DNA from: a virus
Taxonomy: Duplodnaviria; Heunggongvirae; Uroviricota; Caudoviricetes
IMG/VR virus record: IMGVR_UViG_2563366990_000019
Coordinates: 1-21,332 of that record
Length of the DNA: 21,332 nucleotides
Strand: one strand, 5' to 3'
Position 1 is the stretch's first letter; each line of letters starts with the position of its first letter. A program made the position numbers. This document shows positions 3,001 to 6,000 of the stretch, piece by piece.

Positions 3001-6000
3001 TGTACTGGATTCGAACCAGTGACCGATTGCTTAGAAGGCAATTGCTCTGTCCGGCTGAGCTAACAACGCATGAAGTTTTCTGTAATCATCCTCGTTTGGT
3101 AACTGCCACTGGCTGACACTGAACCAGTGCGATGTCATGTTTTTCTTTCCTGTTTTATTAATTTTTCCCAGCAGAAGACAAGAAAAAAGGTTCCGGTGTT
3201 ATCGGAACCTTTCAGCAGTAAGCATACAATTATAGACGCTATAACCATAACATATTTTTTTGTGCGCACACAACCCTTTCAGGTAGTACAACTTCAGGAT
3301 CCATATCCAACCTTACTCCCTGCAGAGTCAGAGCTCCTTCCAGAAATGCTTCAGACGCCTTCAGGGATGTCCGTACGCTAAGATGACTACGGTCTATCGC
3401 CTCAGCAATTGCACGCGTTGAGAGGCCGCCTATAAAACGTAACCCCAGGATCAGCAAATCATCGTACGGGCAAACCATACTCATATGCGCGATGCAGGTA
3501 TCAATCACCGCTCCGTCCTCGTCAGAGCAACCGGGTTTGCCACTATCGGTTACGTCCCGGGAAGTAACCGACATTGAGGGCCAGTCAACCATTGAACAGT
3601 ATTCCTCGCTCGCCGCCCATCGCCCCCACCGCTCCAGAACAAGTTGCATATCTCTACGCATAACGCTGGCCTCTACGTTTTGCTACGAAAAAATTTTCTG
3701 AGAACTACGTCTGTTTATCCGCATCGGGTTTATTGGGGCTCGTTAAGCAGCATAATATGCTCCGAAAGCACTTCCAGTGTGTCATCAATCCGTTGGTTAG
3801 CTAACACAAGTCCCCGTAAGTGCATTGCAGCTTCATCTAAGCCCGCTGTTTGCATAAAGGCAGCAACTAATTCAGGGTGTTGCTTCGCATAGCCCTTTCC
3901 AAAAAGCTCATCTATCGCTATTACGGCGTCTGACATCCACCCACTTGCCGTTTTTGCTGCCTGTTCCGCTAACGTATCCGCACTTGGTAATCTTGCACAG
4001 GTTGTATTCATGTTTTTACTCCGTTTGGTTATTTGTGATTTTCTGCAAGTTTTCTTTACTCAACCTTTTTTTACGGGCAAAAGGTTGAGTAACCTAAAAA
4101 ACATAAAAATCATACTCTTACTCAACCTACTCAACCTTTTGGAAAAATAAAATTCTTACATACATGCGTGCGCGCACGCGTATATTTATATAAAATAGTT
4201 GAGTAGGTTGAGTGGTTGAGTAATATCATGATTTTAATACCATTTTTCTTACTCAACCTACCCTTGTGAGGTTGAGTAGGTTGAGTAACAACCTGCAAAA
4301 ATCTACAAACTTGTAGTTATTTGCATTTTTCCCAGCTGCGAGGCTTACCCGGTAAACTTTGCAACTGTTTATTTTTGTAACCAAGCTTCTTCATGATTGC
4401 TGCAATTTTCATTTCGTCACTGCGTTTTACCTGGGGGGCTTTGAAGCCAATCGCCTCGACCAATACGTCTTTTGACGTAAGGGGGACGCGTTCGCAGTTC
4501 TTTTTCGTGCCGTCGGCAGCCATATCGTACAGATCCTGTGGCAACTCTAACCACTCAGCGACGCATGACATCCAGACCTCATCTTTGACCTCATAATCCC
4601 CAAGAATAGACTTAGCCAGTGTTTCAGCGTTCTCCCATGCGATGCCATCACGTTTAAAAACGGCGACTGCTTCAGCCCAAAGCTGTATTTTTTCGTCAGC
4701 GATACCCTGAGCGATAAACTTGCCGTCAGTCTCATCCGGTATCGTCATCGGCAACCAACGGCGGTTACCTTCGGTATCTGTCAATGGCGTATCGGAGTTA
4801 GAAGTACCAATAAAACCGCAACGCCTCGGTAAAGTGACATAGTGCTCCCGAAACAACCCGCGGTTGCGGTCTGCACGGGTGGATATGGTGACACGAACAT
4901 CACCAATACCCCGTTTATCCATACCGCGCATCTCACCAAGCTCAATAACGTTATGCCCTCGCATCTCACGAATGCGCTCCTCTCCCTTCTTACCGAAGTC
5001 CAGTTCCATGTAATGCTCAGGGGTTGGAGCCATTGCACGGATACCTTCGGACTTGTTCTTACCCTGTTGGCTGACAAGGATCACAGCCATGTCCCCTTTA
5101 ATGCCAGGAACCAGAGCTCGACCCGCGAGCAAAGTCCACCAGTAGCGCCCGACTGCGTGGGTGTAGGCGTTGGCCTCGATACCCCAGTGCCGACAGAAGA
5201 AAGTATCTATACGGGGAACACCATCCCATGCAGGAAGATTGGCAATCCAGTCTTTAAGCGAATCAAAACGGTTTTCATACGCGACCAGGCGCACCGCACG
5301 CCTGATCGCTGCCTCTTCAAATTTCTTGAATCCCAGACATTCGAGCCTAGAGTGCAGCATGGTATAAAACTCATCACGCAACCGCAGGTTTTTCCCCCGT
5401 GGAGTGGTCAGTATTATCTCGTCCCGGAACTCATCAAGGCGGATTTGTACACCGCAGAGATCCGGTCGCCGCAGCGCCAGCAGCACATTGGTAACGGTAC
5501 CTTCTATCCGGTCATTCTTATCACGACTGAACTTAGGCCAGGGAAGATACTCAGGCTTATCGCCATCTTCAGCCACTGTCAAATCTTCGAAGTCCGCCAC
5601 GCGGTAGCCGTATGCATCCAGCCAGTCGGCATCAGTAAGCCCCGCATCGGTGTTGTGCATGCTTTTAAAATGTCCCTGTTCAAATCCCCCCGTCCCTTTT
5701 GGGAAATACTTAATGGATGTTTCGCTGCAACCGTCGCTGTATTCTGACTCATCCCGAAACGGTTTCAGATTGCGGGAACCATCAGAGCTGACTGACAGAG
5801 TCCACCCGTTCGCGTCAAGCCAGTCGGCGACATCATCTGTCGCGGAAGGATCAACACAGGAAAGGTCACGCTGACGTCCTGCACCTGCGGTATAGCTGTC
5901 TTTCACGGGTAAGTTATCCGCCAGACGCTGCCACAGGCTTTCGAGCTGTTCAGATGTAATTTTCAGAGGTTCGCCGGGCAAACCGCAGTCCCACTGAATA

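Follow-up and report, generated by a model that had tools for sequence, protein, structure and literature searches.

The Rep proteins of the staphylococcal pathogenicity islands (SaPIs) are self-loading helicases of superfamily 3 (SF3) that act also as initiators, and their C-terminal winged-helix domain recognises the iterons, 6-12 of which lie directly downstream of rep in an origin that is AT-rich at its centre and carries at least two iterons per side in opposing directions (PMC9371898). In SaPI5 the primase and Rep are fused into one protein, PriRep5 (PMC9371898). In this study we analysed a 21,332-nucleotide stretch of a virus of the class Caudoviricetes (IMG/VR record IMGVR_UViG_2563366990_000019, positions 1 to 21,332; hereafter the window), in which an array of iterons fills the gap between two minus-strand genes, from the stop codon of a 739-amino-acid (aa) primase-helicase gene, here called rep, to the start of a 93-aa open reading frame (ORF). 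We consider it very likely that this intergenic region, 4012-4316, is the replication origin of a lambdoid prophage and that the cognate initiator is the adjoining PrimPol-VapE protein, because Rep is homologous to the SaPI Reps, the plan of the array is conserved in 92 related loci and the iteron type covaries with the wing of the Rep winged helix. A first-pass annotation had placed an iteron-rich origin immediately 3' of the prim-pol/VirE gene, and the same three observations argue for that placement.

The resemblance to the SaPI systems begins with the protein. Pfam assigned residues 436-638 of Rep to VapE-like_dom (2.4e-44; SF3/AAA+ helicase) and about residues 78-185 to Prim-Pol (3.9e-07), primase and helicase being joined in one polypeptide as in PriRep5. 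The phmmer comparison with PDB gave a single match, SaPI1 Rep1 (7pds_A, PDB 7PDS; E 4.7e-26), over Rep residues 394-624, which marks the helicase core as homologous. The C-terminus was predicted to be a winged helix: two helices (about 688-696 and 705-717) are followed in the model by a beta hairpin, i.e. a helix-turn-helix (HTH) plus wing, and the modelled part matches winged-helix folds and 7pds_A. RefSeq names the protein 'VapE domain-containing protein' and some homologues are called 'replication protein'; they are common in Enterobacterales prophages and occur in some phages, among them Yersinia YeP4-6 (45% identity) and APSE P3 (over the C-terminal half). As in the SaPIs, the putative origin lies directly 3' of rep, 10 short iterons form two sets around an AT-rich centre, and origin specificity appears to vary between close relatives. 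All the defining features of a SaPI-type Rep and origin that can be tested in a sequence are present in this predicted pair; ATP-independent binding and melting of the origin and Rep-dependent replication belong to the definition of the SaPI type as well. It differs from the SaPIs in being carried by a full-size temperate lambdoid phage of E. coli instead of a Gram-positive satellite, in its iterons, which are 9 bp long and contiguous at 8-9-bp spacing instead of penta- or hexanucleotides, in its extra outer inverted iteron pairs, and in a 25-42-nt GC-containing alternating tract, a feature that is unmentioned for SaPI origins in PMC9371898.

When both strands were scanned, the iteron GGTTGAGTA was found in eight exact copies and two copies with one mismatch, all within 4057-4287 (Table 1), and no exact copy was present elsewhere in the 21,332-base window. 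In total, 15 matches with at most one mismatch were detected, whereas 100 dinucleotide-preserving shuffles averaged 3.6 and never exceeded 10; the five one-mismatch matches outside the array are in line with chance. The rep-proximal iteron begins 29 nt past the rep stop codon. Three inner iterons on the rep side and two on the far side converge over about 61 bp of low-GC DNA, and outer inverted pairs are present besides; the repeat finder returned two perfect inverted repeats, one of 14 nt with a 9-nt gap (4056-4069 with 4079-4092) and one of 20 nt (4118-4137 with 4269-4288). The GC content falls to 0.32-0.34 at the centre of the array, where GCGTGCGCGCACGC is located at 4166-4179, and is about 0.5 in the flanks. 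Thus, the roughly ten copies in both orientations, the perfect 14-bp inverted repeat and the AT-rich centre holding GCGTGCGCGCACGC that the first-pass annotation had reported were all recovered. A second, crr-like iteron cluster was not found in the 21-kb window, which is only a part of the prophage.

To compare the array with its relatives, 94 related loci were collected from Enterobacterales prophages and phages, two of which were too short, so that 92 were analysed (93 with the window). Most of the comparative power came from IMG/VR and protein-to-contig look-ups, and the scan of species-representative genomes gave six loci. In the relatives whose gene calls were inspected, rep is trailed by an intergenic gap of about 300 bp. 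The dominant 8-mer was called de novo for each locus in the approximately 300 bp past the rep stop, and in every one of the 92 loci its own 8-mer was matched 6-13 times with no more than one mismatch, positions and orientations being conserved. Read in the sense of rep, the plan comprises two direct iterons and an inverted one, about 30 nt, three direct iterons (two in some loci), the centre and two to three inverted iterons, to which close relatives add an outer inverted pair after the far-side iterons. The iteron sequence itself differs among the 92 loci, and about 20 different cores were seen: TACTCAACC in the window, L008 and L011, ATCTAACC in loci of the L009 type, GGAACCACC in those of the L004 type, and further examples ACTTAACC, ATCTAACC/AACCAACC, ACCTAACC/ACCCAACC, AGCTAACC and TATCCAACC, with TGGAACCAC, TGTACCAAC, TGTCCCAAC, TGTCCCCAC, TGTAACCAC, TGTTACCAC, TGTAGCCAC, TAGACCACC and TAGACAACC in a distant subgroup. 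The copies inside one origin have all changed in concert, as is the mark of a site that is present in several copies and recognised by a single specific protein.

Some features of the repeats were observed in addition. In the distant subgroup (L004, L029-L051 and others) the first two to three iterons lie inside the last approximately 30 nt of the rep coding sequence, and the C-terminal tail of these Reps is therefore encoded by their own putative binding sites (e.g., WEPLEPRGTT from TGGAACCAC repeats). The tandem iterons (4197-4222 in the window, and likewise in all loci) are contiguous at 8-9-bp spacing, as opposed to the about 11 or 22 bp usual for plasmid iterons, which corresponds to a helical rotation of about -50 to -85 degrees from one site to the next. 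The approximately 60-degree subunit step of a hexamer is near that rotation, and it is a matter of speculation that the repeats mirror the way in which the C-terminal domains of a Rep ring engage the DNA. The array is flanked on both sides by matching conserved blocks, which in the window, L008, L009, L011 and L015 have the form TTG(C/T)AG-N4-6-(C/T)TGCA followed by AATAAC (alignment A3); variants are TTGCAGATTTCTGCAAATAAC in relatives and TTGC-N6-TTGC in L015 and L022. These blocks resemble a dimer-binding site or a lambda CII-type box, and there is no cII gene between cro and rep. The rep-side block at 4290-4331 may or may not be a part of the origin.

The iteron cross-match was scored for all pairs of 82 non-redundant loci and related to the segmentwise identity of the Rep proteins by Mantel correlation, and by partial correlation with the other segments controlled. 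For the primase half (residues 1-330) r was 0.34 and partial r 0.07, for the VapE core (436-640) 0.39 and -0.37, and for the HTH helices (686-718) 0.45 and -0.10. For the wing (719-736) these values were 0.71 and 0.64. In the distant subgroup, where the iterons encode the tail beyond the conserved Trp/Phe (at most the 10 last codons), the wing segment was ended before that point. Since the wing is the coding segment nearest to the iterons, flanking genes were used as controls in 76 loci. The correlation of the iteron type with cro dropped from 0.18 to 0.02 when the wing was controlled, that with the downstream ORF (first 60 residues), which is just as near to the iterons on their other side, from 0.21 to -0.02, and the partial r of the wing was 0.61 with the neighbour genes included. 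Cro and the downstream ORF were accordingly rejected as readers of the iterons, the residual correlation being about zero. Moreover, when only pairs with at least 85-90% identity across primase, VapE and HTH were considered, 233 of the 258 with similar wings shared their iterons and none had fully different ones, and no iteron cross-match was found in 646 of the 909 pairs with dissimilar wings. The pairing of iteron sequences with initiator variants, which had been named at the outset as a check on the origin, is thus seen as covariation with the wing.

The correspondence is seen also at the tip of the wing. Each of 28 wing-tip classes goes with one iteron core, bar register shifts and one split class, GKVLKVW, which has two cores one base apart. 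For example, GKKCKVW is paired with TGGAACCAC, GKMTRIF with TGTACCAAC, GKKMRIF with TGTCCCAAC, GKLMKVW with TGTTACCAC, GKQIRVW with TAGACCACC and GKPRSW with TACTCAACC. Natural chimeras agree with this correspondence. L009 and L015 share iterons with only 21% identity in the primase, at 97% in VapE and 94% in the wing, and the window and L009 have no iteron cross-match at 58% identity in the primase, 98% in VapE and 56% in the wing. The cross-match between L002 and L012 is 0.27 (primase 95%, VapE 92%, wing 61%), and the iterons of L009 and L004 are unrelated (primase 88%, VapE 40%, wing 22%). We infer that wing residues 719-736 are the determinant of iteron specificity, and the covariation suggests that each Rep is specific for its cognate origin.

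A further exchange of parts was seen in Escherichia phage vB_EcoM-606R2 (ON470579, 3501-6080; L013), whose N-terminal PrimPol domain is 96.7% identical to that of the window. Its helicase half differs, being of the DUF5906 type according to the matching protein cluster and not VapE, and its array repeats another iteron, AGGTGACGG, about 10 times while keeping to the overall plan. It appears that within a single phage group the origin and the primase, helicase and DNA-binding parts are exchanged as modules.

At the centre of the array, the first-pass annotation had pointed to an alternating purine-pyrimidine palindrome that could form a cruciform or Z-DNA. The perfect alternation reaches 29 nt (4157-4185) and so extends past the 14-mer palindrome; no other alternating run in the window exceeds 13 nt, and the chance expectation for runs of 29 nt is 5e-5. 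Every close ('group 1') relative examined has an alternating run of 25-42 nt at the same position, the sequence of which drifts among CG, CA/TG and TA steps, with a longest palindrome of 6-16 nt. A palindrome of at least 14 nt arose in 13.6% of alternation-preserving shuffles, and in hairpin energy the DNA was no better than its dinucleotide shuffles, with z values of +0.24 and +0.41 for the window and between -1.7 and +0.9 for relatives. Because the alternation is conserved while the length and sequence of the palindrome vary, the palindrome is probably incidental and the alternation the selected property. A cruciform or hairpin at the GC palindrome was therefore discarded, and of the original proposal the alternation stands, strongly conserved, with the formation of Z-DNA itself being only possible. 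In a crude calculation with textbook energies the B-Z transition was favourable at sigma of -0.04 or below and unfavourable at -0.025. Easy unstacking of the pyrimidine-purine (YR) steps is an equally good reading, and our preferred guess is that the core reacts to stress, either by melting readily or by switching to Z-DNA.

In the distant subgroup the centre is C(AT)6-9. The type of core tracks the helicase and winged-helix half of Rep and not the primase, which speaks against a role of the core as a recognition site for the primase: L009 and L004 have a common primase domain and different cores. Roughly 100 bp past the iteron array, many distant members have a separate element, CGCGCGTGCGCGCG-TTTT, which consists of a 15-nt GC-only alternating palindrome, CGCGCGTGCGCGCGT, and TTTT; in L003, L004, L005, L014 and many IMG/VR loci it is located approximately 255-285 nt past the rep stop. 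This element has the look of an intrinsic terminator, and in the subgroup of the window a similar alternating, GC-rich element occupies the middle of the origin.

A bolder joint proposal would be that the core is a supercoil-sensing non-B-DNA switch integral to origin firing, and that a few wing residues specify the variable half of the iteron in a reprogrammable, nearly one-to-one code. We regard this combination as tentative and rather unlikely. The switch could be a B-to-Z transition or hyper-flexible YR steps, and the wing code, if true, would account for some 20 or more mutually exclusive origin specificities among initiators that are otherwise at least 90% identical.

How the putative origin would work can be outlined as follows. 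Upon induction, Rep would be made from the rightward early operon, as the gene order (cI-like repressor, cro-like gene, rep) suggests. Its C-terminal winged helix would then bind the 9-bp iterons TACTCAACC, in keeping with the covariation and the SaPI Rep homology, the conserved recognition helix probably reading the constant 3' half (AACC) and the hypervariable wing the variable 5' half. The inner iterons, three and two facing each other across about 61 bp, could position two Rep hexamers head-to-head, an arrangement that is known for SV40 large T antigen and has been proposed for the SaPI Reps; the outer inverted iteron pairs may nucleate or stabilise Rep loading. The hexamers would melt the AT-rich and alternating centre without DnaA, and on the far side of the core, unwinding is likely to take place in the AT/T-rich spacer at 4137-4156. 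No DnaA box was found in the window and no IHF consensus in the origin region. The N-terminal PrimPol would prime the exposed strands, and the forks may use the phage PolA-like polymerase, single-stranded DNA-binding protein (SSB) and/or host proteins.

Several points weigh against the assignment of 4012-4316 as an origin served by Rep. The support is computational throughout, and the hexamer geometry, the DnaA independence and the use of the phage polymerase are inferred. As the segment closest to the iterons, the wing is exposed to linkage in these mosaic phages, and linkage contributes to the correlation; the equally close downstream ORF argues against pure linkage without removing it. In addition, the loci are phylogenetically related and about 85% of them belong to one subgroup, so that the Mantel p-values are only indicative.

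The alternative that survives best is that the array binds Rep for autoregulation, handcuffing or Rep titration and that replication is initiated elsewhere, for example within rep or close to the polymerase genes of the leftward operon. Plasmid iterons are generally known to serve copy control as well, the leftward operon does hold a second replication gene cluster (PolA-like polymerase, SSB, DUF2800 nuclease and SNF2 helicase), and all the evidence for Rep binding that comes from the wing covariation would fit such an array equally. However, the array has the complete anatomy of an origin, with convergent iteron sets around an AT-rich low-GC centre, it occupies the position of the experimentally defined SaPI origins, and the 21 kb contain no second iteron cluster. 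Given this anatomy and the SaPI precedent, Rep binding without initiation is unlikely, and we allow it only a small probability.

The position of the array directly upstream of the 93-aa ORF and the antiterminator gene Q could also mean that it is an operator, promoter or terminator for these genes, bound by a regulator other than Rep and comparable to the lambda nin-region terminators, and the consensus scan did place a weak terminator-like hairpin on the plus strand at 4164-4183. However, this match, the sole one in the repeat region, is antisense to the operon, the sense strand has no T-run directly after the GC hairpin, and the hairpin energy is at the shuffle level with an unconserved palindrome; an intrinsic terminator was rejected on account of the weakness and antisense orientation of the match. 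The same scan gave no promoter-like site in 4012-4316. Moreover, the partial correlations of the iteron type with the downstream ORF and cro are -0.02 and 0.02, the same iteron is found with unrelated downstream genes (L009 and L015), and the same 93-aa gene is found with different iterons (window, L009 and L002). A regulatory site of this kind appears even less probable than Rep binding without initiation.

Plasmid centromeres such as parC of R1 are likewise clusters of short repeats that flank a central region, and a partition, packaging (pac/cos) or recombination site could be imagined here; we consider it very improbable, as the scanned ORFs of the window include no ParA/ParB/ParR-type gene, an integrase gene is present in the element, the terminase of the related Stx (Shiga toxin) prophage is kilobases distant, and covariation with the wing would be unexpected for any such site. 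The least credible candidate, to which we attach next to no weight, is a structured RNA or small protein gene, as might be suggested by a 55-aa TTG ORF (4131-4298, minus strand) overlapping the array in the ORF list and by weak hairpin-type Rfam matches to the inverted repeats: these matches all score 18-26 bits against gathering scores of 64-245 and belong to plant and animal miRNA precursor models, which led us to reject a known RNA family, the region is free of coding sequence (CDS) in RefSeq, and the changes among the relatives comprise whole iteron units, unlike those of a coding sequence.

With the origin reading retained, the locus can be set against other replication systems. The alpha protein of P4 is also a single primase, SF3 helicase and winged-helix protein with repeats of the 8-bp class (P4 type I iterons), its ori is downstream of the alpha gene, and the hosts are enterobacterial in both cases (cf. 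PMC4234260). P4 differs by a Toprim (DnaG-type) primase and a D5-like helicase, as opposed to the archaeo-eukaryotic primase (AEP)/PrimPol and VapE-like domains assigned here by Pfam, and by its need for a further cis site, crr, at a distance of about 4.5 kb, whereas the 21-kb window has a single iteron cluster. The proteins of the pRN1 ORF904 type (archaeal plasmids, Bordetella BPP-1-like phages) have the same AEP prim-pol, SF3 helicase and winged helix, and an essential cis element directly downstream of their own replication gene (PMC4234260). However, the pRN1 origin is a 100-nt stem-loop without iterons, whereas here the iterons are conserved and the stem-loop energy is unremarkable.

The layout of cI, cro, replication genes and Q is shared with lambda and with the O/ori region of Stx phages (PMC7466680), as are iterons beside an AT-rich region and the joint diversification of initiator and origin among lambdoid phages. 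In contrast to the present array of intergenic 9-mers, ori-lambda lies inside the O gene and has at least four iterons of about 19 bp; O is not a helicase and needs P and host DnaB, whereas Pfam found no O or P homologue here and a single PrimPol-VapE gene directly follows cro. The resemblance to SV40/polyomavirus large T and papillomavirus E1 is functional only: these are SF3 helicase-initiators with inverted short repeats, two hexamers and AT-rich or palindromic melting, and the about 60 bp between the inner iterons compare with the 64-bp SV40 core origin, but their origin-binding fold is another one, they have no primase domain and they belong to eukaryotic viruses. Plasmid replicons of the Rep_3/RepA-pi-TrfA kind have a WH1-WH2 Rep, 17-22-bp direct iterons at approximately 22-bp phasing and DnaA boxes; here Pfam detected no Rep_3-type domain, the 9-mers are contiguous and in both orientations, and the window is free of DnaA boxes. 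Taken together, the prophage initiator and origin would belong to the known SaPI/P4-type kind, residing in a lambdoid Stx-phage-related prophage, and what may be new is the long alternating core and the tight match between repeat and wing. Full-text literature searches found no description of this origin, and the papers on the 'Eru' of Stx phages hold that nothing is known on the replication of non-lambdoid modules and do not discuss origins.

Table 1. Coordinates of the array, its surroundings and neighbouring genes in the window.
Feature	Position	Strand	Basis or remark
Intergenic region from rep to the next gene, proposed origin	4012-4316		GC dip; CDS-free in near-identical RefSeq prophage
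Iteron 10 (GGTTGAGTA)	4279-4287	+	first past rep stop, outer member of rep-proximal pair
Iteron 9 (GGTTGAGTA)	4270-4278	+	tandem with iteron 10
Iteron 8 (GGTTGAGTA on minus strand)	4250-4258	-	inverted relative to iterons 9 and 10
Iteron 7 (GGTTGAGTA)	4214-4222	+	first of inner tandem triple, rep side of centre
Iteron 6 (GGTTGAGTG, one mismatch)	4206-4214	+	middle of triple, 8-nt spacing
Iteron 5 (AGTTGAGTA, one mismatch)	4197-4205	+	innermost of triple, 9-nt spacing
AT-rich spacer, inner triple to alternating core	4186-4196		sequence, GC profile
Perfect 29-nt purine/pyrimidine alternating tract TACATACATGCGTGCGCGCACGCGTATAT	4157-4185		contains the 14-nt palindrome 4166-4179
AT/T-rich spacer TTTTGGAAAAATAAAATTCT	4137-4156		conserved as AAGAATTTTATTTTTCAAAA in relatives
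Iteron 4 (GGTTGAGTA)	4128-4136	-	innermost of far-side tandem pair, opposite in direction to the triple
Iteron 3 (GGTTGAGTA)	4119-4127	-	tandem with iteron 4
Iteron 2 (GGTTGAGTA)	4083-4091	+	arm of distal perfect 14-nt inverted repeat
Iteron 1 (GGTTGAGTA)	4057-4065	-	other arm of distal inverted repeat, last before 93-aa ORF
Rep-side conserved flank block (rep-sense ..GCAAATAACTACAAGTTTGTAGATTTTTGCAGG)	4290-4331		overlaps rep stop; direct repeat D7, inverted repeat I23, alignment A3
Far-side matching conserved flank block (rep-sense AACTTGCAGAAAATCACAAATAAC)	4028-4055		just 5' of the 93-aa ORF ribosome-binding site; repeats and alignment A3
rep, fused primase-helicase, putative initiator, 739 aa	4317-6536	-	Pfam, phmmer
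Coding region of predicted C-terminal winged-helix domain (residues 686-739)	4320-4481	-
Coding region of wing (residues 719-736, GYKNKQLQSLPGKPRSW)	4329-4382	-	best correlate of iteron type
cI-like S24/HTH repressor	6821-7501	+	Pfam
cro-like HTH gene	6540-6827	-	Pfam; divergent from repressor
93-aa ORF	3730-4011	-	no Pfam match
Antiterminator Q	3239-3661		Pfam
tRNA-Arg(tct)	2993-3069	-
nanS-p-like esterase	456-2432		Pfam
DUF2800/PD-(D/E)XK nuclease	9280-10581		leftward operon
Enc34-type SSB	10597-11145		leftward operon
PolA-like polymerase	13033-15096		leftward operon
SNF2-type helicase	17872-19266		leftward operon

The genes around the array are listed in Table 1. The leftward early operon (8375-19266) contains a second set of replication and recombination proteins and also encodes a VRR-NUC nuclease and the integrase; much of the replisome may therefore be supplied by the phage itself, and the polymerase gene is annotated as frameshifted in strain 89-3156. 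The 93-aa ORF is conserved (MSTSSERLPSADTLAGQAAKTASGWMSDAV...) in L008, L009, L011 and L002 and is elsewhere swapped for small Cys-rich ORFs (e.g., ...NNEITCPQCANN...).

High-identity copies of the region were found in 2 of 5,426 complete E. coli genomes, and the INPHARED phage collection gave no DNA-level match to it. In E. coli 89-3156 the region is a part of the Stx2a prophage (L001), and RefSeq annotates nothing in the gap. A 10.7-kb portion of the window that includes the rep-iteron module (2957-13701) is 99.5% identical to this Stx2a-converting prophage. The window is without the segment of about 1.3 kb with stx2A/stx2B, which in the 89-3156 prophage sits between tRNA-Arg(tct) and the nanS-p-like esterase (compare window 2889-2957 with L001 6916-8257), and the esterase region is only about 89% identical. 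By sequence, the window prophage is a stx-negative sibling of a Shiga-toxin phage. The gene layout and the Stx2a prophage match also identify it as a temperate phage of lambdoid layout, in which the O/P module is replaced by a single primase-helicase gene.

The set of 92 loci represents a natural mutagenesis series in which a wing of about 18 residues is matched with a 9-bp site in 28 wing-tip classes, and this series is usable for studies of winged-helix specificity or for orthogonal replicons. The conserved alternating core may inform how SF3 initiators open DNA. Finally, a defined pair of origin and initiator gives a handle on the replication of non-lambdoid Stx phages and hence on the toxin gene dosage after induction.

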